This document shows, in pieces, positions 9,163 to 22,333 of a DNA stretch of 64,000 bases. Origin of the DNA: a virus (taxonomy: Duplodnaviria > Caudoviricetes); IMG/VR virus record IMGVR_UViG_3300023174_000144, positions 1 through 64,000 of that record. One strand, written 5' to 3'. The notes under the pieces are model-generated. The model worked only from the letters and a program-made list of their open reading frames with translations. It made no database searches and was not told the origin of the DNA. Within the stretch, counting starts at the first letter, position 1; the number at the start of each line of letters is the position of its first letter. The position numbers and the translations under genes were made by a program.

Positions 9163-9615
9163 ATGAAGTTAATTAATACCACCTCTTATTGTTCTGAAAA
9201 GCTAAAAGAAATTGTTAAATGGTGCTTGCCCCAAGGATTGCACCTTAAAGATATTAGAAAAATAGACTTTGGTAATACCAAAATTGGTTGGCATGGCAGA
9301 GCATGGGGAAGCATGAGGGCGCATATTGCTGTTCCAGCTTATTCTATTTACAAAAAGCCATATAAGAGTGGTGGATTTAGAGGATATTTACCTGTCAAGA
9401 CATATAGCTGGGAAGAATCTTTAATTGAATTAGTTGCCCATGAAGTAAGACACATATATCAATATAAGAAAGATAAGTTCTTTCATGGTATTAAAAAGAT
9501 AAGAAAATACAATATGGGCACTAGGGCTAAATTAAGTGAAGTAGATGCTAGTTTATATGCTATTAGAAAGATAAGAGAGTACAGAAAGAATAATATTAAA
9601 TTTAATTTGGTTTGA
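9163..9615 (+). CDS. putative zincin-like metalloprotein (HExxH)
   Basis: LVAHEVRHIYQ...EVDA; leaderless promoter at 9129. Confidence 0.6.
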   Translation: MKLINTTSYCSEKLKEIVKWCLPQGLHLKDIRKIDFGNTKIGWHGRAWGSMRAHIAVPAYSIYKKPYKSGGFRGYLPVKTYSWEESLIELVAHEVRHIYQYKKDKFFHGIKKIRKYNMGTRAKLSEVDASLYAIRKIREYRKNNIKFNLV

Positions 9616-9616
9616 C

Positions 9617-9747
9617 ATAAGTAGTTGATTATTATATAGTTACGTGGGCGGGCTCCCTGCGCGTGTAAATCGTTGATGGGTAAGCACTTACAACAATATA
9701 AAAAAACTTTCACAAGATTGGCAAGTGCTTGAGTATCAGAATCTTGT
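9617..9747. repeat. dispersed palindrome element R1 (three palindromes)
   Basis: 27-bp 12-3-12 palindromes at 9617, 9665 and 9721; 21-bp GC spacer GTGGGCGGGCTCCCTGCGCGT. Confidence 0.85.
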
Positions 9748-9797
9748 AACACGAAAAAAGTTCTTGTCATAAGTTAAAAGTATGGTATGATTACTAT

Positions 9798-10655
9798 ATG
9801 GCTAGAACAACAAAACCCGCTCAAAGTGTATACGATTTCGATGTACACCAAGAGCCACTCCTCACAACAGACGGCAAGAGGACAGGATACTTCGGCATGG
9901 TGCGCCGTGACACCGCCGAACCCATGACACTCGGAGTTTGCACCGAGCAGTATGGTGTGGTGAAGAATGCAGACCTCGTGACGATGGTCGAAGAGTCGCT
10001 ATCGCAGAACAGTATGCTCGCTAATCACACTTCTAAGAAGTTTGTGGTTCGTGATGGATCCCGTTTCTACGCTAGCTATGACTTCACTGACTTCAAGACT
10101 GAATTGAAGCCAGTTGGCAAGCGTGCCAAGGGAGACATTCTTGGTTTGCGATTGACTGTGAATAACAGTTATGATCGCTCCAGTCGTGTCTCGTTAACCC
10201 TCGGTTTCCTCCGTTTGATTTGCACTAACGGAATGAAATCGTTGACCAAGGAGTTCAGTATGACCAAGAGGCACACTCTTGCTGTTAATCTGGATTTTAT
10301 TGGTGATGCGTTGGCTAACGCTGTCTCCAGCGTTGACAACTCTGTAGCAATCTTTAACAGGTTGGCTCAGAAGGCAATCACTAACGAGCAGGGTTTGACC
10401 TTGCTCACCAAGTTGGAAGAGAAGGACGTTATCTCTGCCAAGGTGCGTGAAGGCATCGAAGCAGTGTGGCGGAATCCTTCTTACGAGGAGGATACTGATC
10501 GCAACCTGTACAATTTGTACAATGCGTCAACTCAGTTCCTGACTCGGAACGTTGCAGATGAACGCTATGAGTATAGCGAGCGCATCAGCACTGATTTGCT
10601 CAAAGTCTTCTCGGGCAAAACCCGTGACGAAGAGCTCCTGAAGCTGGTCGCCTAA
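9798..10655 (+). CDS. DUF932/DUF945-family phage protein
   Basis: G..TEQYGVVKN ... L.V.NSYDRS...LGFLRLICTNG ... NLYNLYNA.T signature; leaderless promoter TTGTCA(9764)-N16-TATGAT-N6-ATG. Confidence 0.8.
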   Translation: MARTTKPAQSVYDFDVHQEPLLTTDGKRTGYFGMVRRDTAEPMTLGVCTEQYGVVKNADLVTMVEESLSQNSMLANHTSKKFVVRDGSRFYASYDFTDFKTELKPVGKRAKGDILGLRLTVNNSYDRSSRVSLTLGFLRLICTNGMKSLTKEFSMTKRHTLAVNLDFIGDALANAVSSVDNSVAIFNRLAQKAITNEQGLTLLTKLEEKDVISAKVREGIEAVWRNPSYEEDTDRNLYNLYNASTQFLTRNVADERYEYSERISTDLLKVFSGKTRDEELLKLVA

Positions 10656-10674
10656 ACTAAAACGAAACTTTAAC

Positions 10675-10707
10675 AGGTGCGAGGGGCAAAACCCCTCGCA
10701 TCTTTTT
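10675..10707 (+). terminator. rho-independent terminator
   Basis: AGGTGCGAGGGG-CAAAA-CCCCTCGCATCT followed by a T-run. Confidence 0.85.
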
Positions 10708-10725
10708 GCTCAAATTTAATGAATT

Positions 10726-10800
10726 ATAAGTCGTTGACCATCAAGCACTTACAGCGCGCGGGACCCTGCGTTTGTAAGTCGTTAACCATTAACGAGATTT
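10726..10800. repeat. dispersed palindrome element R2
   Basis: ATAAGTCGTTGA-CCA-TCAAGCACTTAC, 21 nt, GTAAGTCGTTAA-CCA-TTAACGAGATTT, 5 nt, then TTGACA. Confidence 0.9.
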
Positions 10801-10839
10801 AAATGTTGACAAAAAACCAAGTTCTGTTATTCTTAACCT

Positions 10840-11052
10840 ATGACAAACAAACAATCAGTTCCATTCTATGTGATGAATGTGTTCGGCCAAGACCGAGCCG
10901 TTATCCTAAACACCTCAATTCGTATGTGCACGAGCAAAGAAACTTGTTCACTCAAAGATTTGGAAAATTATGCCAAGGCTTTTGCTGTGGAGTTCTTTCA
11001 AGTTCCAAAACCTTCGAGCTTTCCTGCTAAAGTGGGGCAAGTAGTTTCTTGA
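10840..11052 (+). CDS. hypothetical protein (leaderless)
   Basis: TTGACA(10806)-N16-TATTCT-N6-ATG. Confidence 0.7.
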   Translation: MTNKQSVPFYVMNVFGQDRAVILNTSIRMCTSKETCSLKDLENYAKAFAVEFFQVPKPSSFPAKVGQVVS

Positions 11053-11056
11053 AGAT

Positions 11057-11130
11057 GGGCATATAGCTCAATTGGTTAGAGCGAAGCACTCATAATGCTT
11101 GGGTTGTAGGTTCAAGTCCTACTGTGCCCA
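11057..11130 (+). tRNA. tRNA-CAT (elongator Met or Ile2)
   Basis: GGGCATA/TGTGCCC acceptor; anticodon arm AAGCA-CTCATAA-TGCTT. Confidence 0.92.
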
Positions 11131-11346
11131 TAAATTATGATAATCTTCATAATTATTTATTGACAAAATCACAAGAGGTGTTAAACTTAAAACAATGAAA
11201 GAACCACATACTCTCCATACTTCTCCTTGTGCGGATTGGATGCTTAACTCTTATAGTAAGTTTGTTGAGCCAACTCAAGCTGACATAGATTGGTATTTTA
11301 ACAATAAAAGCATTGACAATAAACAAGAATAGGATAAACTAAAACT

Positions 11347-11733
11347 ATGAAACTTACAAAACAGAATCTTGGTGGACATTGGGTAATTGGAATCGAAGGC
11401 AAGCGAGATGATATTGAGCAGTATCATAATCGAATCTATAATTGGGGTGGCACAAATGGTGAGCTTCAATGGATGAGTGAGACCTTCGCTTACTTTTGGA
11501 TTACGATGGAGAAGTTGGAGCGAGTAATGTTCAAGTATGTTATGAGTAGTGTGAGTGATAAACTTGGCAAGAAAATGAAAGGCAGTAAAGGTGGATTGAA
11601 GAAAGCTGTAATGAATCGAGTCCACAATACAATTAATAATATTCCAAACGATACTTTTGTTAGAACAGCACAAATCCAAGAGTTCTTTTCGCTCGGAAAG
11701 ATTTCTGCTGAAAAGTTAGATACTGATAGCTAA
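11347..11733 (+). CDS. conserved hypothetical protein, IYNWGGTNG family (paralog of 21568-21987)
   Basis: Leaderless promoter at 11313; motifs shared with the minus-strand paralog. Confidence 0.75.
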   Translation: MKLTKQNLGGHWVIGIEGKRDDIEQYHNRIYNWGGTNGELQWMSETFAYFWITMEKLERVMFKYVMSSVSDKLGKKMKGSKGGLKKAVMNRVHNTINNIPNDTFVRTAQIQEFFSLGKISAEKLDTDS

Positions 11734-11739
11734 TTTATC

Positions 11740-11824
11740 GGGCAAGTGGCGGAACTGGCGAGACGCATCTGGCTTAAGATCAGATACATTAGAAACATTG
11801 TGAGTTCAAATCTCACCTTGCCCA
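11740..11824 (+). tRNA. trnL: tRNA-Leu(TAA)
   Basis: GGGCAAG/CTTGCCC acceptor; TCTGG-CTTAAGA-TCAGA; long variable region. Confidence 0.92.
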
Positions 11825-11836
11825 AGTTTTGATGTT

Positions 11837-11908
11837 GCTCTTATAGCTTAATGGATAAAGTGAATGTCTTCTAAACATTCTATGCAGGTTCGATTCCTGC
11901 TAAGAGCA
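11837..11908 (+). tRNA. trnR: tRNA-Arg(TCT)
   Basis: GCTCTTA/TAAGAGC acceptor; AATGT-CTTCTAA-ACATT. Confidence 0.92.
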
Positions 11909-11960
11909 CTTTAGCTTAAAAAGATAATCTATTTCAATCTAATCTAGTGTAACTATAAGT

Positions 11961-12488
11961 ATGAATAAAACTCTGTTAAAGCAATATATAGATTCTGGCT
12001 ATTCTTCTTATAAGATAGCTAATATTTCTAATAAAGGCCAAACTACAATAAGATACTGGCTCAAAAAATATGATTTATTTACCAAAGGAAACAAAAGAGA
12101 TACTAAAATAATAAATGGAGATACTCATATTAAATGTGGAAACTGTGATAAATTTTATTCAAAAGATAATTTCTATAAAAAAACAAAAAAGTCATTTATG
12201 AGTTATTGCAAAGAATGCTTTAATGAATACGCAAAAGAGAGATGGAAAGCTAGAAAACGTAAGGCTATTGAATATAAAGGTGGCAAATGCTCTTCTTGTG
12301 GCTATAATAAATGTCCTGATGTTCTTGAATTTCATCATAGAGATCCTAAACAAAAAGAATTTGATTGGAAAAAACTTCGTCAGATGTCTTGGGATAAGGT
12401 AACAAACGAATTAGATAAGTGCGACATACTTTGTTCGAACTGCCATAGAGAGCGACATTACGAAATATTTTCTCTAAATAAAAAATAA
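11961..12488 (+). CDS. HNH endonuclease with N-terminal HTH and Zn-finger (putative homing endonuclease)
   Basis: SYKIA..TTIRYWLKKY HTH; CxxC pairs; LEFHHRDP...LCSNCHRERH HNH core. Confidence 0.85.
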   Translation: MNKTLLKQYIDSGYSSYKIANISNKGQTTIRYWLKKYDLFTKGNKRDTKIINGDTHIKCGNCDKFYSKDNFYKKTKKSFMSYCKECFNEYAKERWKARKRKAIEYKGGKCSSCGYNKCPDVLEFHHRDPKQKEFDWKKLRQMSWDKVTNELDKCDILCSNCHRERHYEIFSLNKK

Positions 12489-12847
12489 CATGTACTCTAT
12501 TTATGTGAGAGATTTTTTTGACAAGAATGCCCCAATCATTTTTCTTTGTGGAATAAGTTTGAGTATTTTTTGGGGAGCAATAGAAGAGTTAATTAAAATG
12601 TTAATTACACATCTAAAATAGTTTTTCCAAAATATCTAAGTACACAGTATAAATAGTTGAAATATAAACCAATATATTGTAATATATAATATATGAAGCA
12701 TGAGAATAGATTTGATAAGAAACTAGAACAAAAAATCTTGTCTGAGATCGATCAAAAAGATCTTAAACAAATTGATCAAATGCTTTCTGATTTAGAAATC
12801 GTCTGGAAGAAGTGGGTCAAAGCTCATCCAGATTGGAAGTCTCATGA

Positions 12848-12922
12848 ATAAGTCGTTGATACTCAAGTAGTTATAGAAGCAGGGAGCTTCGCGTTGTAAG
12901 TCGTTGACTCTCAAAGAGATAT
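12848..12922. repeat. dispersed palindrome element R3
   Basis: Palindromes at 12848 and 12896, 21-nt spacer; 5 nt to TTGACA at 12928. Confidence 0.9.
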
Positions 12923-13086
12923 AAAGCTTGACAATTTTCACATCTATATTAGAATTATTAAATGGCACTTCTTAAAGCTATTATTAATTTTCCTTTTGTT
13001 CAAATTTCGTATGGTGAAGGTAACATTTTATTAAGTTGGAAAGCCTGGCACTTGGCAGTATATTTATATTTTTGGTGGAATTATTC

Positions 13087-13428
13087 GTGAAAGCAAAGCA
13101 CAAAGTATACTATAACTTACATAAGCATTGTTTAAGTATAATGCTTCGTGGAAAAGTATTAGAGCATAACTCAGAGTTCTTTCTTAAAGATGTAGAGTTT
13201 AGAGTGAGTCAAGCTGGCAGAAACAGAGTATTAAAAGAAAAGCGGAAAAATGTTCACGCTTTTGTGTGTGGCACTCCAGATGATGGTTGGCCTATTGATC
13301 AAAATGAAAGAAAAGTAACATATAATCCTTATAAGTATAACAGCTTTGTTTATGCTGATACTCTTGAGCCAGTATACAAAGTAAAGTGGGCTGGTGTTAT
13401 AAATCGTGATATATTTGTCTTGAATTAA
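13087..13428 (+). CDS. conserved phage hypothetical protein
   Basis: YYNLHKHCLS...FRVSQAGRNRVLKEKRKNVHAFV; GTG start overlaps the stop of a small leaderless ORF at 12962-13090. Confidence 0.7.
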   Translation: MKAKHKVYYNLHKHCLSIMLRGKVLEHNSEFFLKDVEFRVSQAGRNRVLKEKRKNVHAFVCGTPDDGWPIDQNERKVTYNPYKYNSFVYADTLEPVYKVKWAGVINRDIFVLN

Positions 13429-13595
13429 TCTAAAAGTATAGTAGAATTATCTAATGGAAATTACTAAAGCCAAGAAACTAAAGGAGGGTGGTTACGCACT
13501 ATACGCAACTGACCCTAAAACTAAAACTGAAACCCAAGTTGGATATATTGGAGAAGGTCTGACTTTGGAAGCGTGGCTTCCTAAAGGAGTAAAAA

Positions 13596-14009
13596 TTGAA
13601 AATTCTTGAAGAAACATTTACCAGTCGAGGATTTAAGTTCACGATGATTGGTCGTGATGGCGATGTTGCAATCTATAAAAAGCAACTCGATGAACCAGAC
13701 AGCGAAGCGTTCAACTATGAAGTGATTGCTATTAAGCGTCACAATGGATATGAAATTGCAGGTGTGAAGATGCCACCAGCAGAAATGTATCCAAGCGATA
13801 GTCAATGGGGCGATTGGGCTTATACTTGTATTGATCGTGAAGATGCAGACAAGCGATTCGTTCAACTAAAAGAAAAACTAGAAGCTTATGTTGCGACATC
13901 AACCTTGCCTAATGGTGAGAAGCGTGGTCGTGGTCGTCCTCGTAAGAGCGATGTTCTTCCAGCACCTCCAGCAGAAATCCACTTGACACCAGAACAATTA
14001 GCAGTATAA
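13596..14009 (+). CDS. hypothetical protein with C-terminal AT-hook
   Basis: KRGRGRPRK motif; E.YPSDSQWG.WAYT conserved-looking core. Confidence 0.7.
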   Translation: MKILEETFTSRGFKFTMIGRDGDVAIYKKQLDEPDSEAFNYEVIAIKRHNGYEIAGVKMPPAEMYPSDSQWGDWAYTCIDREDADKRFVQLKEKLEAYVATSTLPNGEKRGRGRPRKSDVLPAPPAEIHLTPEQLAV

Positions 14010-14016
14010 TCCGATT

Positions 14017-14250
14017 ATGACATACAAATGTGCAGTAAGCGGTGAAGCAATTTCACCAGAGAGAGTTGAGGCTCTGCAAGTCCTCGGCGTTCCAGAAGCT
14101 CTATGGACTAAAAAAGAGCATAGTCAAACAAGAAAGCTAAAAGCTATATATGCAGGTGACGATGGCAGTAATGACATTGTTATTTGTGATAATGTAGATG
14201 GTGGCTCAATGTTTGAGAATGAAGTAATCGCAGAGGTAGAAAATGACTAA
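14017..14250 (+). CDS. possible degenerate TraR/DksA-like small protein
   Basis: YKCAVSGEAISPERVEAL resembles C..CG..I...RL.A but only one Cys remains in this motif. Confidence 0.4.
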   Translation: MTYKCAVSGEAISPERVEALQVLGVPEALWTKKEHSQTRKLKAIYAGDDGSNDIVICDNVDGGSMFENEVIAEVEND

Positions 14251-14423
14251 TAAATTTATAGTATTGAGAGACGGAGTTCGTGTCAGCGATGATATGTACA
14301 ATTCAGAAGCAGATGCCCAACACGAGGCAAACTTCTGGCGTGAAATCATCAAGCGTTGGCCAGACGGCACGAAAGTCGTTATCAAAAAAATCGGTGGATA
14401 ACTTCGGAGGCCGACACTAAAAT

Positions 14424-14514
14424 ACGAGGGTCGTCTAACTGGTTAAGACCCACGATTTATATTCGTGAAGCTCTAGATTTGAGCGTAATGAAGGTTCAAA
14501 TCCTTCCCCTCGTA
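14424..14514 (+). tRNA. tRNA with TAT anticodon (Ile) and long variable arm
   Basis: ACGAGGG/CCCTCGT; D-stem GTCT/AGAC; CACGA-TTTATAT-TCGTG; variable arm GCTC-TAGATTT-GAGC; GAAGG-TTCAAAT-CCTTC; A73. Confidence 0.85.
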
Positions 14515-14587
14515 AACCCTTAACAATCAACAAGAAAAAAAAGATAAAAAAGTTTGACAAAAAAGAAAGGTATAGTAAGATAAGAGT

Positions 14588-14854
14588 ATGAACAAAATCA
14601 AAAACGCAGTAATATACATAACCTCATTCACCAAGTATCTGTTCCTTTTCCTCGTAGGGCAAAGGTATCTGATCGAATACAAACCCTACGGCAAAGATGA
14701 AGTCTATACTTACATCATTGGTAAGCCTTCGTCTTATACGATTAGCAAGGCTGGCAACAAGTTGTTTACGACTTTTTGCTTCTCTGGTCGTATGGATTCT
14801 GGCGTGAAGCAATTCCGCTACGATAGAATTACTGGAGGTCTCTCGCCAGTTTAA
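14588..14854 (+). CDS. hypothetical protein (leaderless)
   Basis: TTGACA(14554)-N16-TAAGAT-N6-ATG. Confidence 0.7.
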   Translation: MNKIKNAVIYITSFTKYLFLFLVGQRYLIEYKPYGKDEVYTYIIGKPSSYTISKAGNKLFTTFCFSGRMDSGVKQFRYDRITGGLSPV

Positions 14855-14893
14855 CAACAGAGAGATGGGGTCGTGATTTACCCCTCCATATAG

Positions 14894-14926
14894 AAAAGGC
14901 GAGACCTAAAAAATCTCGCCTTTTTT
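14894..14926 (+). terminator. rho-independent terminator (possibly bidirectional)
   Basis: AAAAGGCGAGA-loop-TCTCGCCTTTTTT. Confidence 0.8.
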
Positions 14927-14961
14927 ATTGCACTTAAACAAAGTTATGTTAAGATAACTAT

Positions 14962-15100
14962 AGTTCTTTCCGCAAGGTGTGGAGTGACTAACCCATTAAC
15001 GCCCTTGAAACCCCAATGCCCAGAGTCTGAGGCAATTAGAGGTGGGTATATATTCTCTTTGATTCTAGAGCAAAGAGAGCGGAAAAAACTTATTTATTTT
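14962..15100 (+). ncRNA. candidate ~130-nt structured RNA
   Basis: TTGCAC(14928)-N16-TAAGAT; 5' AGTTCTTTCCGC pairs 11/12 with GCGGAAAAAACT (15079-90); internal hairpins; T-tract after. Confidence 0.45.
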
Positions 15101-15269
15101 TGCGCCAATCTTCTCTGTGGTTAAATACCCAACTTAACAAAGCTTTTTCAAAACCAATATCTTGACCAGCTTTTTCACTTTCAATCCATTTGTGTTTTAA
15201 GATCTCTTCTCGTTCTTCCATGAACTTTTTATATAACGCTGACGACTCTAATATTCCAGAGGTTTTCAT
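15090..15269 (-). CDS. conserved small phage protein
   Basis: EREEILKHKWIESEKAGQDIGFEKALLSW; GTGTAA motif upstream at 15291-96. Confidence 0.7.
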   Translation of the reverse strand: MKTSGILESSALYKKFMEEREEILKHKWIESEKAGQDIGFEKALLSWVFNHREDWRKNK

Positions 15270-15355
15270 CAAATATTATTATAAATAATATTACACAAAA
15301 TAGCAAATAGTAATTGCTAAATAGCTAAATAATAAATATAATAATACTACATATT

Positions 15356-15427
15356 GGGGCTATCGTCTAATGGTTAGGACTCCTCGCTTTCAATGAGGGT
15401 GTATCGGTTCGAATCCGTTTAGCCCTA
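15356..15427 (+). tRNA. trnE: tRNA-Glu(TTC)
   Basis: GGGGCTA/TAGCCCT; CCTCG-CTTTCAA-TGAGG; TTCGAAT T-loop. Confidence 0.9.
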
Positions 15428-15443
15428 TATACTTATGATAGTT

Positions 15444-15518
15444 ATAAGTGCTTAATTATCAAAGATTTATAGCGGCGGGCTCCCTGCCTTTGTAAGTTGT
15501 TGATAATGAGAGAGTTAT
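15444..15518. repeat. dispersed palindrome element R4
   Basis: Palindromes at 15444 and 15492; lies between tRNA-Glu and a convergent small ORF (15518-15652, minus strand). Confidence 0.85.
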
Positions 15519-15706
15519 TACTCTCCCATATCACGAGCATGGTCAGCATCAAGCTCTGCCTGAGTTTCTAAGGCTCGTTCCATAGCTTGATCGTCCCACA
15601 TTTCTTTTGCCCAGATTTTTAGTGTTTTTTCGTCATCGAATATGTTCATCATATTTACCTCCTTTCTTTCTATAGATTATCATATTTATCTATATAGTCA
15701 ACAATT

Positions 15707-15781
15707 ATATTTCATTGATTATTAGAGAGTTACAAAAGCGACCTCCCTTGTGCTGTAAGTCTTTGATGGTGAATGAGATTT
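15707..15781. repeat. dispersed palindrome element R5 (between divergent promoters)
   Basis: Palindromes at 15707 and 15755; each outer arm is 5 nt from a -35 box (TTGACT on minus, TAGACA on plus). Confidence 0.85.
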
Positions 15782-15820
15782 ATTAGTAGACAAAAAGAAA
15801 AAAACTGATATATTTAAACT

Positions 15821-16660
15821 ATGAAAGTAAACGAAATTATCACTGAAAAATTCATCGAAGCCCTCAACAAAGGTGTCATCCCTTGGCAGAAACCTTGGAA
15901 AGTTTTTGACCTCTGCAACGGAGTTTCCAAAAAGAATTATAGGGGCATCAATCAATTTTTGCTACGGATGCTTGCTTCTGATGATTTCTTTTTTACATTT
16001 AATCAGATCAAGGAACTAGGTGGGAGAATCAAAAAGGGTGCAAAGTCTCACATGGTAGTTTATTACAAACTCCTCAAGACAGAAAGCAACAATGAAACCA
16101 AAACTTTTCCAATGATGAGATTTTATAAAGTTTTTGGCTTGAGTGATATTGAGGGCATGAAGTGGAAACAGCCTGAAGTTAAGAAGTTGGATTTTTCACC
16201 AGTAGAAGAAGCAGAAAAGTTGATCAACAAGTGTTTGATTCAGATTAAGTATGGTGGCAGTCGTGCCTGTTATTATCCGCAGGAGCATAAAATTGATCTT
16301 CCTCCAAAAGAAAATTTCACCAGCGTTGAGGAGTATTATTCCACAGCGTTCCATGAGATTGGTCACGCTATGCACAAGGCTACCAATGACGATGTAAAAA
16401 ATGGATTTGGAACTCAGAATTATAGCAAAGAAGAATTGACAGCAGAGATTTTTGCAAGCCTATGCCTTAACTTCTGCGGAATTGATTCAGAAAAATGTTT
16501 CAACAATTCTGCCAGCTATCTCTCCAACTGGCTAGGAGTATTAAAGAAAGACATGAACTTTATTATCTCAGCTTCTAGCAAAGCACAAAAAAGATTTGAC
16601 GCTTTTATTGGTAGAAAAGAAAGCGAAGAGATTCCACAAGAAGAAGCTGTAACTGCTTAA
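15821..16660 (+). CDS. ardC: ArdC-like antirestriction protein (ssDNA-binding N-domain plus zincin domain)
   Basis: IIT..FIEAL.KGVIPWQKPW...YRGIN...TFNQIKELGG.IKKGAK; YYSTAFHEIGH; YSKEELTAEI; NSASYL.NWL. Confidence 0.9.
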   Translation: MKVNEIITEKFIEALNKGVIPWQKPWKVFDLCNGVSKKNYRGINQFLLRMLASDDFFFTFNQIKELGGRIKKGAKSHMVVYYKLLKTESNNETKTFPMMRFYKVFGLSDIEGMKWKQPEVKKLDFSPVEEAEKLINKCLIQIKYGGSRACYYPQEHKIDLPPKENFTSVEEYYSTAFHEIGHAMHKATNDDVKNGFGTQNYSKEELTAEIFASLCLNFCGIDSEKCFNNSASYLSNWLGVLKKDMNFIISASSKAQKRFDAFIGRKESEEIPQEEAVTA

Positions 16661-16723
16661 GTATTAACTACTTACGCAAGCGGGGTCCCTGCCGTTCTAA
16701 GTCATTGATAGTCAATGAGATTT
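16649..16723. repeat. dispersed palindrome element R6
   Basis: GTAACTGCTTAA-GTA-TTAACTACTTAC contains the ardC stop codon; second palindrome at 16697. Confidence 0.85.
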
Positions 16724-16774
16724 AACTGTAAAAAAAAAACTTGTACGAAAACAAAAACGTGGTAACCTATTTTT

Positions 16775-17410
16775 ATGTTCAAAAACAAAAAACAAGCCGA
16801 AGAGATTGTTGGCACACTCTCAAAACCCTCGAAGATGCCTGGATATGCTTATTCAACGCCCGCAAAGCGTTGTCTTATCGGGCAGAAAATGCGGAATGTT
16901 GTAGGAAGCATTTGTGCTTTTTGCTATGCTCTTAAAGGGCGTTATGTTTTCCCCAATGTTCAAAAAGCTATGGAAAAGCGTTTTGCTTCTCTTACCAATG
17001 ATTTGTGGGTGGATGCTATGACATACTTAATCGGCAAGGTTAAGAATCCGCATTTCAGGTGGCACGATTCGGGCGATTTGCAAGGTGTGTGGCATATTGA
17101 AAAGATTGTGAAGATTGCAAAGAATCTTCCTCACATTTCTTTTTGGCTTCCAACTCGTGAATATGCTTTCGTTTCAACCTATATTGAACAAGGCGGTGAA
17201 GTTCCTAGCAATCTTACTATCCGTTTGTCTGCTCTGATGATGGATGGCCCCGCACCCGTAGGAATTGCACAACGCCTTGGCTTATGCGTTAGCGGTGCAA
17301 GTAAGATTGGAAACTTCAACTGCCCAAGCTCCAAACAAGGCAACAAGTGCGGTGATTGTCGCAAGTGTTGGGATAAAAATGAGTTTGCAATAGATTATAA
17401 AAAGCATTAA
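16775..17410 (+). CDS. gp88-like Cys-rich protein (Fe-S / radical-SAM-like)
   Basis: SKMPG..YS.PA..C...C..CYALKGRY; FRWHDSGD; FWLPTRE; CP...GNKCGDCRKCW. Confidence 0.75.
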   Translation: MFKNKKQAEEIVGTLSKPSKMPGYAYSTPAKRCLIGQKMRNVVGSICAFCYALKGRYVFPNVQKAMEKRFASLTNDLWVDAMTYLIGKVKNPHFRWHDSGDLQGVWHIEKIVKIAKNLPHISFWLPTREYAFVSTYIEQGGEVPSNLTIRLSALMMDGPAPVGIAQRLGLCVSGASKIGNFNCPSSKQGNKCGDCRKCWDKNEFAIDYKKH

Positions 17411-17643
17411 GATGTCTAGATGACATTAATCTTTTTAATTATCCTTGGAATAATTTTATCATTATATATAACATACTAAAATGAAAATTGAAAAACTCTT
17501 AAATGAAAATCTAGAATCTTTTTATCCTTGGAATGATTCTGATAATCCTCCACTCGATACAGATAAAAGTTTCGCACAAAAACAAAAAGAGATAGATGAA
17601 ATCTTCGAAGGTTGGCGAGCGAGTATGTAAAAAACTTGCTGAT

Positions 17644-17717
17644 GTAAGTCTTTGATAGTCAAGGATTTACAACGGCAGGGCCCTGCGCCCGTAAGTCGTT
17701 GATAATCAATCACTTGG
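17644..17717. repeat. dispersed palindrome element R7 (between convergent genes)
   Basis: Palindromes at 17644 and 17691; 20-nt spacer containing the perfect dyad GCAGGGCCCTGC. Confidence 0.9.
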
Positions 17718-17738
17718 GACGATAGGTTATTTTACATT

Positions 17739-17972
17739 TTATTCTCCACAAATTTCTGGATCGCCGAAGTAACCATAGTCTTCGTCAGTGCCGTGGCCAG
17801 CAGAAGCCATAGCAGAGTCAAAGTCGCCATCCATAGATTCGTCTGGCTCGTTAGAGGTTTCGGATTTGATAGCGCGATCATCTTCGCGCATCTCGTTAAG
17901 GATGTCACGCACATCCTGCGAGCCCAACATATGTTGAGCCATCCACTCTTTAAGAGAGGCTTTGTAGTCCAT
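17739..17972 (-). CDS. small acidic hypothetical protein
   Basis: Start at MDYKASL; C-terminal DGDFDSAMASAGHGTDEDYG motif. Confidence 0.65.
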   Translation of the reverse strand: MDYKASLKEWMAQHMLGSQDVRDILNEMREDDRAIKSETSNEPDESMDGDFDSAMASAGHGTDEDYGYFGDPEICGE

Positions 17973-17973
17973 A

Positions 17974-18138
17974 TTATTTGACCTCCACGATGGTTTCAGT
18001 TTCGTTATAGCTCGGAGCCATCTTGTCGAGCATTTCATTGATAACGTCTGCGGAGTTGATGTAGTCGAAGAATGCTTCCGCATCAGCATAGACTTCAACG
18101 CAGTTAATCGAGGCAAGGTAGGTGATTTCGTTTGTCAT
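17974..18138 (-). CDS. small acidic hypothetical protein (leaderless; not in the ORF track)
   Basis: TTGCGC-N16-TACATT-N6-ATG; MTNEITYLASINCVEVYADAEAFFDY... Confidence 0.6.
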   Translation of the reverse strand: MTNEITYLASINCVEVYADAEAFFDYINSADVINEMLDKMAPSYNETETIVEVK

Positions 18139-18288
18139 AAGTTAAATGTATCACAGATTATTTTTAGCGCAACATTTATTTTCAGAAAAAGTAAATAGAA
18201 GAATTGCTAATAGTAAATAGGAAATAGCCTAATAGTAAATAGCCCAATCTTTTCGCTTCATTCAGTTTTATGTTGAAAATCATCATTT

Positions 18289-18363
18289 GTAAGTCGTTGA
18301 TAGTCAAGGATTTGCGCGCGGGGGCTCCCTGCGTGTGTAAGTCGTTGATAGTGAGCGACTTAT
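18289..18363. repeat. dispersed palindrome element R8
   Basis: Palindromes at 18289 and 18337; 21-nt spacer GCGCGGGGGCTCCCTGCGTGT. Confidence 0.9.
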
Positions 18364-18512
18364 AATTAGTCAAAAACCATAAAGAAAAAAGCGAGCTTCC
18401 AAAGCGTATTTAGAGATGTAATAAAAAAATCTCTCTCTCAAAAAGTTTTTCTTCTCACCATTTTTCACAGCGAGACGAAAAGTTTTTTTATTTATTTTGA
18501 AAAGTATTTTTT

Positions 18513-18707
18513 TCATTCGTATTGCCACTCACTAGCTTCTTCTTCGATCTCTGCTTCTATGTCAGGCCACATATGGTCAGGAATAGAATAATTTCGGTTT
18601 AACTTTTTATCTTTGGCGATTTGAATTGCTCGCCCTAAACTTTGGAGAGCTTCGCTCCCGAAGTAGATTTCTTCTTTTAATCTTTGAACACTATTTGTTA
18701 AGTCCAT
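18513..18707 (-). CDS. hypothetical protein
   Basis: Co-directional minus-strand string. Confidence 0.6.
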   Translation of the reverse strand: MDLTNSVQRLKEEIYFGSEALQSLGRAIQIAKDKKLNRNYSIPDHMWPDIEAEIEEEASEWQYE

Positions 18708-18708
18708 A

Positions 18709-18933
18709 TTATTTGCTCAACCTTTCTTGTGCATCTTTGAGATATTCAAGAGCCTCTCTGATTGATTCGTTTTGCCAACCTTTTGTGTAAGGTTTGACTG
18801 CTTCTAGTTTAATCACAGCAACCGAGAGGCAACCTTTTGCCCATCCTTTGTTGTGTGCTTCATTCATTATTTTTTCAATTTCAATTTCCATATTAGTCTC
18901 CTTTGTATTTTGAGGATTCGTTGAAACTTCCAA
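18709..18933 (-). CDS. hypothetical protein
   Basis: Co-directional string; true start probably 18894 (MEIEIE). Confidence 0.55.
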   Translation of the reverse strand: MEVSTNPQNTKETNMEIEIEKIMNEAHNKGWAKGCLSVAVIKLEAVKPYTKGWQNESIREALEYLKDAQERLSK

Positions 18934-19168
18934 TGAAGTTCATCGTTCCGTTTTTGCGTTCTTCGCATTGTTTGAGAAGTTCGGGAGTCATTTCGACTTC
19001 GGTCACTTCATCATAAAAAGCTAGGACACTTCCAACTCCAGAGATTCTAGAAAGGCATTTCTTGTTTGAGGTTGAGTTGAACATTTCGCAGATTGCGATA
19101 TGGTTTTCGATTTGGTAGTATTTACCCACTACGAGGGTTTCTATTGTGTTTTTCATTTGTTCTTTCAT
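18893..19168 (-). CDS. hypothetical protein (leaderless)
   Basis: TTGACA-N16-TAGATT-N6-ATG on the minus strand. Confidence 0.7.
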   Translation of the reverse strand: MKEQMKNTIETLVVGKYYQIENHIAICEMFNSTSNKKCLSRISGVGSVLAFYDEVTEVEMTPELLKQCEERKNGTMNFIGSFNESSKYKGD

Positions 19169-19208
19169 ATTCTTAATCTATCACACTTTCTGATTTTGTC
19201 AAGCTGTT

Positions 19209-19235
19209 AAATTTCGTTGATTTACAGCGACTTAG
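19209..19235. repeat. single palindrome R9
   Basis: AAATTTCGTTGA-TTT-ACAGCGACTTAG; overlaps the stop of ORF 19222-19437; 6 nt from a -35 box. Confidence 0.75.
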
Positions 19236-19437
19236 GACTTTTCCCATTAAGTTTTTCTTTAAGTAGAGCGTGAGCCCTAGCTTTTTCAGGGTTATTCTTT
19301 TTCCATTCAGCCCATCGCTTTTTGCGATTTGACCATATAGCTTGATTTTTTTCTTTGCGTTGAATTTCCCACTCTTGGGAAGTTAGTTCTTTTTTATTAT
19401 CTTTATTCATTTTATTTTTTCTTTCTTTCATTTTCAT
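19222..19437 (-). CDS. small basic hypothetical protein
   Basis: ORF; start may be 19410. Confidence 0.55.
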   Translation of the reverse strand: MKMKERKNKMNKDNKKELTSQEWEIQRKEKNQAIWSNRKKRWAEWKKNNPEKARAHALLKEKLNGKSPKSL

Positions 19438-19501
19438 TTCTTATCTTGTTATAAGTATAGTTTAGCATATTTCAGAGAAAACGCAACAAAAATCTTCATT
19501 T

Positions 19502-19576
19502 AAATTTCATTGATCATCAACGAGTTACAACGCAAGGGACCCTGCGTCTGTAAGTCATTATCTTGTAACAACTTAC
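19502..19576. repeat. dispersed palindrome element R10
   Basis: Palindromes at 19502 and 19550; spacer AACGCAAGGGACCCTGCGTCT. Confidence 0.85.
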
Positions 19577-19587
19577 ATCAGCTAATT

Positions 19588-19983
19588 TTAGAATGCCGTG
19601 AAAGTCATTTTTGTAGATTCATCTAAAGTTTTTTTAGAAGGTTTGAAAAAGATTACTTTTTCTGAAACTTTTTCAACTGTGATATTTTCTGGCAAAGAAA
19701 CTGTCTCACCTTCATCATCTGTGGCTACCATCAGAGCCTTGCCAGCATAAGGTTGAGATTGAATCCCATACTTAAAGTAGGCTTGATGCTCTGAATCTTT
19801 TAGTAGTCCTTCGTCATCTAGAATTAAATCGATTCCTCTGTATTGGTTTGATGTGCCAATGCCAGCAACTGTTATGATTTCGCAATCAATTAAGTTTTTA
19901 ATGGTTTGAAGTTTAGTATCAACCATCGTTACATCCATTACAGTTTCAGTAAATGGGTCTATGAGTATTGCTCTTGTCATCAT
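19588..19983 (-). CDS. DUF3846-like phage protein
   Basis: AILIDP...L..I..LI.C..I...LILDDEGL...YAGKALM..TDDEGET pattern. Confidence 0.6.
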   Translation of the reverse strand: MMTRAILIDPFTETVMDVTMVDTKLQTIKNLIDCEIITVAGIGTSNQYRGIDLILDDEGLLKDSEHQAYFKYGIQSQPYAGKALMVATDDEGETVSLPENITVEKVSEKVIFFKPSKKTLDESTKMTFTAF

Positions 19984-19984
19984 A

Positions 19985-20128
19985 TTAGATGTTCCTCGTT
20001 TTTAGTAGGTTGCTCAACTCTGCTAGATAAACTCCAGCGGTGAGGTTGTATTGTTTATTGTTTAGGTCTTTGATGATGTCCACCAAGTTGGAAGCCAACT
20101 CGATAATCTTGTCATTGGTATTGTTCAT
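19985..20128 (-). CDS. small hypothetical protein (leaderless; not in the ORF track)
   Basis: TTGACA-N17-TAACCT-N6-ATG. Confidence 0.5.
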   Translation of the reverse strand: MNNTNDKIIELASNLVDIIKDLNNKQYNLTAGVYLAELSNLLKTRNI

Positions 20129-20159
20129 ATGTTTAGGTTATCTCCTTTTGCTAATTTTG

Positions 20160-20342
20160 TCAAACACCAAACTTGTTACGATATTGATTATATAGGTTTT
20201 GATATTCTTCGCCACCTTGGGCGATAGCTTCTTCAATTTCTTTAAGTTGATTTTGACCTCTGCGATAGTAGTATGAGTCTTCACTCATTTGGTAAGTCCA
20301 ATCGTGATTCTTTAAGAGTTCTTCGAATTGTTGAATGTTCAT
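20160..20342 (-). CDS. hypothetical protein (LLKNHDWTYQMSED motif)
   Basis: Conserved-looking HDW.Y..S.D...Y..G motif. Confidence 0.65.
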   Translation of the reverse strand: MNIQQFEELLKNHDWTYQMSEDSYYYRRGQNQLKEIEEAIAQGGEEYQNLYNQYRNKFGV

Positions 20343-20618
20343 TTATTTATTTTCCTTTATTAGTTTAGCGTTATTAAGGTTGATAGTTCCAACCTTATCT
20401 TTATCTTTACCTTCTAGGAAGGTTACAACCGCAGTATTTGCAGAAGTTTTGTAAGAAACTTTTACTAGAGTTCCTTCGTAAAGGTATATTTCACCAAAGT
20501 AAGTTGGTGTATTGTTAGAGTTAGTAATGATTACTTCTTCAGAAGCATTCATATTTTTTCGCATATTTTCACGCATTTGTTTTCGTTGAAAATTCCAGTT
20601 TATCATTCTATGAGTCAT
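20343..20618 (-). CDS. hypothetical protein
   Basis: ORF behind TTGACT-N16-TAAACT with an A-rich leader. Confidence 0.55.
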   Translation of the reverse strand: MTHRMINWNFQRKQMRENMRKNMNASEEVIITNSNNTPTYFGEIYLYEGTLVKVSYKTSANTAVVTFLEGKDKDKVGTINLNNAKLIKENK

Positions 20619-20691
20619 TTTATTTTTTTCTTTCTTTGTTATTTGTTATCTTTTATCTTATGTATATAGTTTACCACAATTCGTCCAAAAG

Positions 20692-20880
20692 TCAAATTAT
20701 TTCTTCAATTTGTTTTTCGTTGATTATCATAGAGTTATGATGAGCAACTTCAACTTTCTGCTGATATTTTGAGAAACTTTCGTCTAATCTCTTTTGAGAT
20801 TCTTCGATTGATTTTTTCAGTTCGGCAGAAGCCTTGTCGATATTTCCTAGGAGGATTTCTAATTTGTTTTTTCTTTTCAT
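20692..20880 (-). CDS. coiled-coil hypothetical protein (leaderless)
   Basis: TTGCAA-N16-TAGATT-N6-ATG. Confidence 0.6.
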   Translation of the reverse strand: MKRKNKLEILLGNIDKASAELKKSIEESQKRLDESFSKYQQKVEVAHHNSMIINEKQIEEII

Positions 20881-20929
20881 ACCTATAATCTATCACATTT
20901 TAGAAATTTTGCAAGATATTTTTACATTT

Positions 20930-21004
20930 AAATTTCGTTGACCATCAAGAACTTACAACGCAAGGGAGGCGGCTTACATAACTCATTGATACTTAATGGT
21001 TTAG
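20930..21004. repeat. dispersed palindrome element R11
   Basis: Palindromes at 20930 and 20978; 21-nt spacer. Confidence 0.85.
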
Positions 21005-21089
21005 ATTTTATGCGTTCCATCAGGTTTTGGTCTAAGATCGGTGAGGATCTTTTGCCTTTCATCAGGTTTGTCCCTAAGATCGAGGATAC

Positions 21090-21164
21090 GTAAGTCGTTA
21101 GCTATTAAGCACTTAGGTAAGATCCCTCCCTGCGCGCGTAAGTCCTTGATGGGTAGGTACTTAC
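21090..21164. repeat. dispersed palindrome element R12
   Basis: Palindromes at 21090 and 21138; 21-nt spacer. Confidence 0.85.
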
Positions 21165-21185
21165 AAGCAGTAGGTTAGCTAATCG

Positions 21186-21563
21186 TTACAGCTTATAAAA
21201 CTTATGATTGCGTATTGTTGCTACCAGCTTTGTATTCTTTGCCCATTTGGGCGAGACGCTGATAGCGTGATAGTGATTAGCACCCTTGACGATGTCGGGC
21301 ATCTGCTTATGTATAACTAGATCAGCAAGGTAGAGAGCGTTCTTACCTTGTGCTGTTGCTAGTAGTTTTCTTTTAGTGGATTCACTCACGCCACCATTCC
21401 AGAAACTAAACTGCTTGGATGCTAGACACACTTGGCTTGCTGATTGCTTACGCTCTACCATCCTTGTTTGGATAACGCTAGCAACGCCAGCCATTCCCTC
21501 GAATGTCTCGCCCCTAGCTTCACCCAAGAGCGTCAATGCTACGATGAATAGTTCTGCTGTCAT
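21186..21563 (-). CDS. cell wall hydrolase, SleB/CwlJ-like (Hydrolase_2)
   Basis: LTLLGEARGE...GVASVIQTR...QVC...QFSFWN...GANHYHA...PKWA...IRNHKFY. Confidence 0.88.
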   Translation of the reverse strand: MTAELFIVALTLLGEARGETFEGMAGVASVIQTRMVERKQSASQVCLASKQFSFWNGGVSESTKRKLLATAQGKNALYLADLVIHKQMPDIVKGANHYHAISVSPKWAKNTKLVATIRNHKFYKL

Positions 21564-21567
21564 AGGA

Positions 21568-21987
21568 TTAGTCCCTTCCATTACTTACTGCCCCGCAGTA
21601 GTCACTAGGTTTCTCTGCACTGATAGTGCCAAGGTTGTAGACGCTCGACCAGCTATCATTCCTTAAGAATCTGCCCTTCTCAATGCTATCCACAATGCCT
21701 TGAGCCTTTGCCCTTGCAAGGTCAATGAGGCCACCTTTGCGACCCTTTGCATTGATCTTGTTGGTCAATGAATGAATGGCAATCTTGGTAAGAGCCTTCA
21801 TTACATCATCAGGATGAGCGTAGAAGTAAAACGCTTTGCCGTTGCCCATATCGTGCAACTTGCCGTTTGTTCCACCCCAATTATAAATGGAGTTGAAGAA
21901 GTGATTGATCTGCTTGAGGTTTCCTTCTAGTAGATAAGCGTGGCTTTCACCGAAGGTTTCGTAGGTTATTTTTAGGTTTTGTTTCAT
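21568..21987 (-). CDS. IYNWGGTNG-family protein (paralog of 11347-11733)
   Basis: Shared IYNWGGTNG.L, KG.KGGL and LG.ISAEK motifs; start moved to ATG 21987. Confidence 0.75.
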   Translation of the reverse strand: MKQNLKITYETFGESHAYLLEGNLKQINHFFNSIYNWGGTNGKLHDMGNGKAFYFYAHPDDVMKALTKIAIHSLTNKINAKGRKGGLIDLARAKAQGIVDSIEKGRFLRNDSWSSVYNLGTISAEKPSDYCGAVSNGRD

Positions 21988-22106
21988 AGGTAGTATATTG
22001 CCTTTTTGTTTATGTTTCGTCAACTATTATTTTTTAGCTGTTACCATACCATAGATGCCCACGAGGATGCTTCCAATGGTAAGGGTAAAGATTAGGGTAT
22101 CGATAT

Positions 22107-22256
22107 TCATTTGCTCATCGCTTTCTGATGGATAGCTTCCACCTTTTCGGCGTGAGCGTCAAGGATTAGAACTGCCTTGGTAGAGGCGTTCTTAAGGTCT
22201 TGGCTAGCCTTGTTTAGGTTTGCGATCAGTTGTTCGTATTTACTTAGTTTCTTCAT
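22107..22256 (-). CDS. small hypothetical protein (leaderless; not in the ORF track)
   Basis: TTGCAC-N16-TAGATT-N6-ATG. Confidence 0.55.
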   Translation of the reverse strand: MKKLSKYEQLIANLNKASQDLKNASTKAVLILDAHAEKVEAIHQKAMSK

Positions 22257-22306
22257 ATAGGTAATCTATCACAGAATAGGAATAGTGCAAGGGATTTTCT
22301 TCAGTT

Positions 22307-22333
22307 AAATTTCATTGACCATCAACGACTTAC
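22307..22333. repeat. single palindrome R13 (last copy in the window)
   Basis: AAATTTCATTGA-CCA-TCAACGACTTAC. Confidence 0.85.

Follow-up and report, generated by a model that had tools for sequence, protein, structure and literature searches.

A repeated module of ~75 bp marks the boundaries of early gene units in this uncultured lake phage, and we consider that it would act as a protein-bound insulator and operator that delimits early transcription units, with recombination between copies as a by-product (probability about 0.55). A consensus scan of the window (the whole 64-kb stretch of DNA analysed), allowing up to 8 mismatches, found 25 palindromes, every one inside 9617-22333, and 0 in the remaining 51 kb; with the limit set at 3 mismatches, 4 matches remained vs. 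0.00 expected (100 shuffles). The palindrome is 27 bp long with a 12-3-12 layout, although its nominally 3-bp spacer is effectively 1 bp, as positions 13 and 15 prolong the palindrome to give a symmetric site of 27-29 bp; its conserved positions include A3, A4, T10, A18, T24, and T25. The copies are grouped into 11 doubles and three singles (19209, 20712, and 22307). Within a double, the second palindrome starts 48 bp after the first (47 bp in R7), with a GC-rich imperfect dyad (GCGGG..CCCTGC type) between the two, and the entire element is self-folding.

This anatomy agrees exactly with the preliminary description, which had counted 25 palindromes (11 doubles, two singles, and one extra copy), none outside 9.6-22.3 kb, and had reported the 48-bp repeat (47 bp in R7), the GC-rich centre, and the inverted-repeat character of the whole element. 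The stop codons said to abut or lie inside R1, R3, R4, R6, and R9 (the 19209 single) are likewise present, and the paralogous genes on opposite strands (11347-11733, +; 21568-22023, -) are real (32% identity, E=1e-19). The division into one- or two-gene units was too narrow: transcription units comprise 1 to about 8 genes, plus tRNAs, and the strand does switch, but at R4/R5 and R7 only. The features of the array, at window positions, are as follows.

9617..9691, no strand: R1 double module, free-standing; adjoins the stop of 9163-9615; neither flank with a strict-pattern promoter.
10675..10703, + strand: classic intrinsic terminator (12-bp stem and T-run), just 5' of R2; the sole one in the region.
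10726..10800, + strand: R2 double module; promoter-facing variant GAGATTT in the right outer arm.
10806..10833, + strand: predicted promoter TTGACA-16-TATTCT, 5 bp past R2; ATG 6 nt after the -10, predicted leaderless.
12848..12922, + strand: R3 double module; holds the stop of 12693-12851; right arm variant.
12928..12955, + strand: predicted promoter TTGACA-16-TAGAAT, gap 5; ATG predicted leaderless.
14527..14538, + strand: possible degenerate half-site remnant TCAACAAGAAAA, 5' of the promoter at 14554; by eye only.
15444..15518, no strand: R4 double module, at the convergent ends of tRNA-Glu (+) and the 15518-15652 gene (-).
15674..15701, - strand: predicted leftward promoter TTGACT-16-TAATCT, gap 5 from R5; gene with a Shine-Dalgarno leader.
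15707..15781, no strand: R5 double module; divergent predicted promoters either side; variant in both outer arms.
15787..15814, + strand: predicted rightward promoter TAGACA-16-TATATT, gap 5 from R5; ArdC-like gene 15821-16660 predicted leaderless.
16649..16723, + strand: R6 double module; holds the stop of the ArdC-like gene; right arm variant.
16741..16768, + strand: predicted promoter TTGTAC-16-TAACCT, gap 17; predicted leaderless ATG at 16775.
17644..17717, no strand: R7 double module; palindromes at 47-bp spacing around a perfect GCAGGGCCCTGC centre; flanked by convergent genes.
18289..18363, no strand: R8 double module, free-standing; best-conserved copy (3 mismatches per palindrome).
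19209..19235, - strand: R9 single palindrome, variant arm; overlaps the stop of 19222-19437.
19202-19175, - strand: predicted R9 promoter TTGACA-16-TAGATT, gap 6.
19502..19576, - strand: R10 double module, left arm variant; predicted promoter TTGCGT-16-TAAACT at 19486-19459, gap 15.
20712..20738, - strand: R11 single palindrome; predicted promoter TTGACT-16-TAAACT at 20695-20668, gap 16.
20930..21004, - strand: R12 double module, left arm variant; predicted promoter TTGCAA-16-TAGATT at 20914-20887, gap 15, predicted leaderless.
21090..21164, no strand: R13 double module, free-standing, 86 bp to the right of R12.
22307..22333, - strand: R14 single palindrome, right edge of the array; predicted promoter TTGCAC-16-TAGATT at 22290-22263, gap 16, predicted leaderless.

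The promoters and leaderless starts are predictions from sequence. A strict sigma-70-type pattern (T[TA]GNNN-N16-TANNNT), searched within 45 nt of each flank, is present on precisely the 10 flanks that bear the variant outer arm, and on none of the remaining 18. The gaps between module and promoter form two groups one helical turn apart (5, 5, 5, 5, 6 and 15, 15, 16, 16, 17), and a looser scan across all loci gives peaks at 5, 15-16, and 25-26. This strict coupling and helical phasing supports the view that the palindromes behave as protein-binding sites, and fits the regulatory-operator role suggested in the preliminary description. Five of the 11 doubles (R1, R4, R7, R8, and R13) lack an adjoining promoter; thus, promoter control cannot be the sole role of the module. 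Several predicted consensus promoters in the region have no palindrome (e.g., 9129, 11160, 11313, and 13983).

Across 559 phage palindromes, arm-to-arm Watson-Crick pairing equals the independence expectation at all 12 positions (for pair 8/20, 251 pairs observed vs. 236 expected), and the mean is only about 9 of 12 Watson-Crick pairs per palindrome. This lack of co-variation shows the palindrome to be not a hairpin but a site read by sequence in double-stranded DNA, and comparison of the copies thereby supports the view that the palindromes act like protein-binding DNA sites. The half-site sequence is conserved even though contigs range from 35 to 49% GC and paired sites lie 40-60 bp apart; the centre is lineage-dependent. 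It is improbable that the transcribed palindromes and GC-rich centre instead function in RNA as hairpins, whether as terminator, 3'-end stabiliser, or processing site of the RNase III type that separates the early genes of T7. Hairpins would fit the location of copies at gene 3' ends, with stop codons inside, and the strong folding of whole elements (e.g., R8, -44 kcal/mol), but they do not fit a primary sequence that is kept across lineages while its structure goes uncompensated. Within the window, transversions predominate among arm mismatches, and on the + strand G-T mismatches exceed A-C regardless of transcription direction; the leftward-transcribed half accordingly shows no excess of G-U on the sense strand. 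Furthermore, R2 is probably little transcribed because a strong classic terminator precedes it, the promoter-facing arm variant disrupts the outer stem, and Rfam searches of the window and 10 related loci matched tRNAs alone.

The centres themselves are 79% GC, compared with 42% across the loci, and their dyad symmetry (0.51) exceeds that of shuffles (0.36). Also in favour of a hairpin is a related 58-bp class, in which the centre is a true GC hairpin followed by a T-tract (a canonical terminator) and is co-oriented with the genes in 27/27. The class found in the window has a weak dyad without a T-tract, and in the 50-bp class, which is the commonest, the centre folds barely above shuffles. 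Only one classic terminator is present in the 14 kb.

The same module is present in more than 80 IMG/VR contigs, and thus in dozens of other uncultured phages. In a complete relative of 171,916 bp, all copies (up to 5 mismatches) save two weak ones are at 124.7-136.4 kb. The spacing of paired sites differs across classes (40-60 bp) and is helically inconstant; thus, cooperative binding of the pair is not implied. The marker gene pair of the group was identified in at least 540 IMG/VR contigs, and the early-gene cargo includes ArdC-like and DUF932 proteins, homologues of L5 gp82 and gp88, DUF3846, and many ORFans. No cultured relative was found in INPHARED by DNA search of the array or with the 508-aa structural protein, the perfect element, or the sigma-like protein, and a literature search for the motif strings returned coincidental primer matches only. 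Array-less loci carry no alternative repeated palindrome.

Compared with five relatives, 21 of 35 breakpoints fall at elements, vs. 14.0 expected (P=0.004), and the changes seen are block transposition, gain, and loss. The 15518-15652 gene relocates as a whole unit together with its flanking doubles. In a three-junction block swap, two junctions are within, or no more than about 40 nt from, R2 and R3; the third is at the possible half-site remnant (14527..14538) recognised by eye, which the automatic test scores as not at an element. Such mobility is what would be expected if the modules were dedicated site-specific recombination sites, at which a recombinase bound to the paired arms would shuffle or invert cassettes in the manner of integrons or invertase systems, and a 12-3-12 geometry does fall in the range of serine-recombinase sites. 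We nevertheless regard this explanation as very improbable. About 40% of breakpoints are away from elements, including an HNH insertion and the departure of the 19222-19437 gene from an operon without elements; copies within one genome are merely 60-80% identical; and no inversion between copies was seen among the five relatives. Phage_integrase (PF00589) and Resolvase (PF00239) are absent from five array-bearing records (three complete and two partial; controls positive), which extends to these genomes the earlier remark that the window has no visible recombinase. Because three complete array-bearing genomes lack a tyrosine or serine recombinase, it is unlikely that a dedicated system shuffles or inverts the units, and such a system would leave promoter phasing unexplained. 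The likeness once drawn to paired-arm core sites of tyrosine recombinases does not hold, as such sites are incompatible with a 3-bp spacer. Site-specific recombination sites would be expected to show either a crossover spacer of 6-8 bp, unlike the 3 bp (effectively 1 bp) here, or, as in integron attC, hairpins conserved in structure and variable in sequence, unlike the present palindromes, in which the sequence is conserved and the arms do not co-vary. Of the original proposal of recombination points, then, the preference of breakpoints for elements stands, and the dedicated inversion or shuffling system is not supported.

The preliminary description also proposed that a phage protein binds the sites; they do behave as protein-binding sites in DNA, but no known phage-encoded DNA-binding family was found in the searches below, so that a phage-encoded binder may have a novel fold. 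Among the top 25 families per batch listed by Pfam and PHROGs searches, none was a DNA-binding domain in ~100 ORFs of the window. For the complete relative, no DNA-binding Pfam domain was among the matches listed (25 of 40 families) for 95 ORFs of the early half, and none was among the top 25 families per batch listed for ~190 ORFs (Pfam and PHROGs). In family searches, HTH_3, HU/IHF, and ParB were absent from five array-bearing genomes. A clade-conserved Zn-ribbon and sigma-like pair is not a specific candidate for the binder, since it is present with or without a nearby array (77/79 loci). Among 79 loci centred on the sigma-like gene, cargo-like small ORFs alone tracked the array. IHF was considered in view of the sequence WATCAANNNNTTR that the right half and spacer often make up together, which is now seen as a by-product of the palindrome running into the spacer.

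The lack of a phage-encoded family would be accounted for if the sites were those of a host regulator, either borrowed by the phage to time its early genes or titrated by it. The same palindrome is present in phage lineages that are otherwise wholly different, and Fibrobacter genomes each carry an identical 27-bp word at 1-7 intergenic sites (reversed-pattern control, 0), 5' of orthologous genes across species. We consider this explanation unlikely, if less so than hairpins in RNA. Fibrobacter is an improbable host (30% vs. ~50% GC), and the phages contain no homologues of the genes beside its sites, among them purL and those for a giant adhesin and a 136-aa protein. Other bacterial matches mostly resemble ordinary terminator hairpins or repeats; the chance figure for the bacterial scan (about 4 matches) underestimates what palindromic words would give, since perfect hairpins are plentiful in genomes, and the per-genome control applies to the Fibrobacter sites only.

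Under the insulator-operator reading, each module would form the boundary of a transcription unit, at which one dimeric, sequence-specific protein would occupy both sites (half-site GTAAGTCGTTGA) around a GC-rich dyad that may halt or insulate transcription. Where a predicted promoter follows, the promoter-facing outer arm gives way to A/T-rich, UP-like sequence, and the site keeps to one helix face relative to the -35 box, so that the bound protein could contact or compete with RNA polymerase. The entire early anti-defence gene set might thereby be switched together. As to the sign of regulation, we favour shut-off or insulation because the predicted promoters are near-consensus unaided. As a ~75-bp word stands at every boundary and is shared by many phage lineages, its copies would undergo general short-homology recombination that shifts, adds, and deletes gene units as a by-product. 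A more tentative version, which we hold to be possible but doubtful, is a clade-wide bidirectional insulator: a conserved dimeric protein, possibly host-encoded given the identical word at conserved Fibrobacter sites, would clamp the GC dyad, act as a roadblock that enforces termination where a U-tract is lacking, and gate the next promoter from its fixed helical face.

PeSL cassettes of T4-type phages are described as repeated small modules, each with a strong sigma-70-like early promoter and a stem-loop terminator. They are scattered through a hyperplastic region of small, non-essential early genes, and recombination between copies explains insertions, deletions, and replacements between relatives (Arbiol et al., 2010; PMC2839356). 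Already suggested as an analogue, they remain a close match: in both systems the repeat is dispersed among small early genes, recombination at copies distinguishes relatives, and a sigma-70-like promoter (predicted, in ten copies here) is joined to it. As a putative counterpart of the stem-loop terminator, the 58-bp class has its co-oriented hairpin and T-tract, and the window's class its weak dyad. The added feature here is conserved operators, the terminator-like centre being bracketed by two 27-bp palindromes that, unlike the centre, are conserved across many phage lineages; in addition, the promoter is optional, and helically phased when present, and the carriers are unrelated, siphovirus-like lake phages. 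Stoperators of Cluster A mycobacteriophages, bound by L5 gp71-type repressors, are many copies of one protein-binding word in early-region intergenic gaps; they are short (13-14 bp), asymmetric, and monomer-read, and have been proposed to block elongation in addition to controlling promoters (McGinnis et al., 2022; PMC9283540). The distribution of the present sites is similar, with cargo that shares the L5 gp82 and gp88 homologues; however, these sites are 27 bp, symmetric, and paired around a GC dyad, and neither repressor gene nor integrase was found by Pfam searches. Stoperators are also oriented with transcription. KorB OB sites of IncP plasmids, C1 operators of P1, and the conserved inverted repeats of phiC31 each place one word at many promoters to co-regulate establishment and early genes, as the palindrome might here, although no ParB/KorB-type protein is present in the five array-bearing genomes. 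None of these three operator systems is known to place paired sites on either side of a terminator.

Should one protein read all the sites, it would be a master switch of the whole early anti-defence gene set in a group of aquatic phages that is both abundant and uncultured. Should the clade-wide insulator prove true, it would be a common plug-in socket for anti-defence genes in many unrelated lake and marine phages. A terminator between two operators, with an optional phased promoter, would be a compact insulating design that is testable and reusable. Because the modules mark insertion points of new early genes, a computational search for them can point to early and counter-defence genes in phage contigs from metagenomes.

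A search of the whole 64-kb window with the pattern GTAAGTCGTTGA-N3-TCAACGACTTAC at up to 8 mismatches returned exactly 25 sites, every one inside 9617–22333, as the preliminary description had it; at up to 3 mismatches, four sites were found in the window vs. 0.00 expected. The 25 sites form 11 doubles and three singles (together R1–R14, numbered left to right), each double being laid out as palindrome, GC-rich dyad of ~21 bp, and palindrome, with a start-to-start distance of 48 bp (47 bp in R7). The G+C content of the array region is 35–41% vs. 27–37% elsewhere in the window. Among the elements and features in the window are:

10675–10703, the only classic intrinsic terminator predicted in the 14 kb
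10726–10800, R2, double
11961–12488, HNH endonuclease gene (PHROG 2255, E=6e-37)
12848–12922, R3, double
14423–14515, tRNA-Ile gene (anticodon UAU, long variable arm)
14527–14538, possible half-site remnant, identified by eye
15444–15518, R4, double
15518–15652, single-gene unit
15707–15781, R5, double
17644–17717, R7, double
18289–18363, R8, double
19209, 20712, and 22307, the singles R9, R11, and R14
20930–21004, R12, double
21090–21164, R13, double

Other short repeats accompany the array. The 86-bp gap between R12 and R13 (21004–21082) is filled by two 37-nt direct repeats, 78% identical and both ending CTAAGATCG. A second short repeat, AGTAAATAG/TAAATAGC, has at least three copies between a leftward promoter and R8 (18188–18245) and recurs at 15274–15346, within an A/T-rich inverted repeat close to tRNA-Glu; a CTATTT repeat resembling it comes after an array in another retrieved locus (L115).

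By its behavior, the palindrome is a dimer-binding site on duplex DNA, binding itself being predicted. Among 559 palindromes from array-bearing phage loci, a mean of ~9 of the 12 arm positions pair, and Watson–Crick pairs between arms occur at the level expected from independence at all 12 positions. Of the arm mismatches in the window, 63 of 108 are transversions, and G-T exceeds A-C on the plus strand in the rightward- and leftward-transcribed halves alike; thus, the signature of sense-strand wobble is absent. The sequence logo is near-invariant at A3, A4, T10, A18, T24, and T25, and reaches one base further out (C...G) and into the spacer (T13, A15). Furthermore, the outer stem is destroyed by the arm variant that faces promoters, and a strong terminator precedes R2. 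With the arms behaving in this manner, we consider it unlikely that the modules are RNA hairpins.

The GC-rich center has properties of its own. In 325 doubles, its G+C content is 79% (vs. 42% for the loci), its symmetry about the midpoint is 0.51 (vs. 0.36 in shuffles), and its folding is modestly better than that of shuffles. Lineages differ in the sequence and length of the center, with pair spacings of 40–42, 48, 50–53, and 58–60 bp. The 58-bp class has a 6–7-bp GC stem and a 4-nt loop (TTCG, GAAG, or GTAG), then TTTT, on the coding strand of the flanking genes in 27 of 27 cases (six loci); because of this structure and its constant strand, the center is predicted to be an ordinary intrinsic terminator. 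The T-tract is vestigial in the 48-bp class of the window. Loci of the 50- and 58-bp classes (L014, L067, L091, L245, and L246) also contain another dispersed word, CTAACAG/CTGTTAG, at 8–9 copies per locus in spacers beside double modules, and their first palindrome is often preceded by an A-tract, then TTGACA.

The modules separate transcription units. R1, R3, R4, R6, and the single at 19209 either contain a stop codon or directly adjoin one; convergent gene ends lie on either side of R4 and R7, and divergent starts flank R5. On 10 palindrome flanks the outer arm GACTTAC is replaced by the variant GAGATTT, usually with AAATG next. When the promoter pattern T[TA]GNNN-N16-TANNNT was searched within 45 nt of every flank, one predicted promoter was found on each of the 10 variant-arm flanks and none on the other 18. 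The gaps between palindrome and –35 box (5, 5, 5, 5, 6 and 15, 15, 16, 16, 17) fall into two classes that differ by one helical turn. An ATG lies 6 nt past the –10 box in seven of the 10 predicted promoters, which implies leaderless mRNAs (also predicted). R5, in which both outer arms are the variant, serves a pair of divergent predicted promoters, and the doubles without an adjacent promoter (R1, R4, R7, R8, and R13) retain consensus arms.

Five of the six tRNA genes in the window fall within the array, with those for Met, Leu, Arg, and Glu scattered among early units. Numerous small ORFs are also found in the array, alongside cargo of a type typical for entry and anti-defense: a DUF932 protein, DUF3846, an ArdC-like anti-restriction protein bearing a zincin domain, homologues of gp82 and gp88 from mycobacteriophage L5, the HNH endonuclease, and a cell-wall hydrolase. 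Outside it are siphovirus tail genes, among them those for a J-like fiber and a tape measure of 2789 aa; a tail assembly protein I homologue (61748–63064) has a Hint/PT-HINT domain (E=1e-12). Located 10–25 nt ahead of structural-gene start codons (upstream of 22626, 24047, 28060, 29099, 35339, 38889, and 44942) is a GTGTAA(T/A)AT-like motif, possibly a late-promoter element that the sigma-like protein of the clade might read. No similar phage was found in the INPHARED collection.

The palindromes had been proposed as regulatory operators and/or recombination points that shuffle or invert cassettes. Five close relatives share genes at 75–100% protein identity in differing order (REARRANGEMENT). 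The block order is D, g3–g8, D, g9–g13 in the window vs. D, g9–g13, S, g3–g8, D in four relatives (D, double; S, single). The unit at 15518–15652 has a double on either side in three genomes, occupies a different position in one, and is missing from another; genes 19222–19437 and 19588–19983 likewise change place. Of the three block-swap junctions, examined in the nucleotide sequence, two are inside or within ~40 nt of a palindrome (R2 and R3); the third has only the possible half-site remnant, and the automatic test did not count it as lying at an element. The tRNA-Ile gene is located at this third junction. The proposed placing of breakpoints at elements holds in part: 21 of 35 collinearity breaks touch one vs. 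14.0 expected (P=0.004, from five non-independent comparisons), with exceptions that include the HNH insertion and a gene lying in an element-free operon in relatives. The HNH gene is absent from the same place in all five relatives, and looks like a homing-endonuclease insertion between a tRNA pair and the next small gene. None of the five relatives showed an inversion between copies. Five array-bearing genomes, three complete and two partial, yielded no tyrosine or serine recombinase; the controls were positive. Despite the enrichment of breaks, it is highly improbable that the modules are dedicated recombination sites.

An exact-word scan of IMG/VR matched at least 118 contigs; among those listed, ~80 are multi-copy and 67 have arrays of at least four. 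They range in size from fragments up to 318 kb, with 35–49% G+C. In a complete array-bearing relative (171,916 bp; IMGVR_UViG_3300027763_000027), copies at up to 5 mismatches lie in one 11.7-kb stretch, with two weak ones elsewhere. One genome that has direct terminal repeats carries its array inside the first 30 kb, consistent with first-entered early DNA. Array phages have in common a conserved gene block for a Zn-ribbon protein, a sigma-70-region-2-like protein, an ERCC4 nuclease, terminase, and PhoH. The palindrome is within 10 kb of the sigma-like gene in only 16 of 79 sampled loci. The sigma-like gene, counted alone, is present in at least 540 IMG/VR contigs, and the phage group is thus very abundant; INPHARED has no cultured member. 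In sampled loci, the Zn-ribbon gene overlaps the sigma-like gene (weak ECF-sigma similarity), as a conserved pair beside terminase and ERCC4 nuclease (L004:5347–6426; L070:5077–6064; retrieved genome G004:141510–142639).

Candidate binders were sought in the phages. No Pfam DNA-binding domain was identified in ~100 ORFs of the window or ~190 of the complete relative (25 families listed per batch), and HTH_3, HU/IHF, and ParB are absent from the five genomes searched. The palindrome word is also present in bacterial genomes. Many matches are terminator-like hairpins beside tRNA genes or pieces of non-coding repeats (Saprospiraceae, Microscillaceae), and may be chance. A TAACTC variant lies inside a multi-copy non-coding repeat on many contigs of one Saprospiraceae and one Microscillaceae MAG (L143, L188, L192, L205, L208, L209, L215, L217, L221, L222, and L229). 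Fibrobacter genomes have 1–7 intergenic sites each vs. 0 for a reversed-pattern control; the sites precede orthologous genes in many species, and some agree with the word at every one of the 24 specified positions. These sites suggest that Fibrobacter has an uncharacterised regulator whose specificity equals that for the phage palindrome. Fibrobacter sites (L126, L151, L164, L172, L177, L184, L231, and others) also keep the flanking C...G; they are found in the gap that separates a 136-aa ORFan from a giant Big_9/cadherin-repeat protein, ahead of the genes for a 1302-aa protein and an HD-domain protein, and ahead of purL. That the modules are sites of a borrowed host regulator, which overlaps with our main reading, is doubtful: a connection of the Fibrobacter sites to the phages was sought, and none was established.

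The most likely reading (probability roughly 0.55) is that the modules act as boundary elements bound by a protein. Transcription would be stopped at the GC dyad, with help, where a U-tract is lacking, from a roadblock at the downstream site, and the symmetric site pair would make the module functional in both directions. The site facing a promoter, which is in phase with the –35 box and overlaps the position of an UP element (center near –53 or –64), would allow the same protein to govern the next unit. Recombination at the repeats would be a consequence of the modules, as shown for the promoter-early stem-loop (PeSL) cassettes of T4-type phages (PMC2839356). The general kind is already known: early regions of phages carry regulatory cassette repeats and operator arrays, exemplified by PeSLs and by the stoperators of Cluster A mycobacteriophages (PMC9283540). 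What is new is the composite of two operators flanking a predicted terminator, its conservation across many lineages while the center drifts, and the all-or-none coupling of the arm variant with a phased, predicted promoter.
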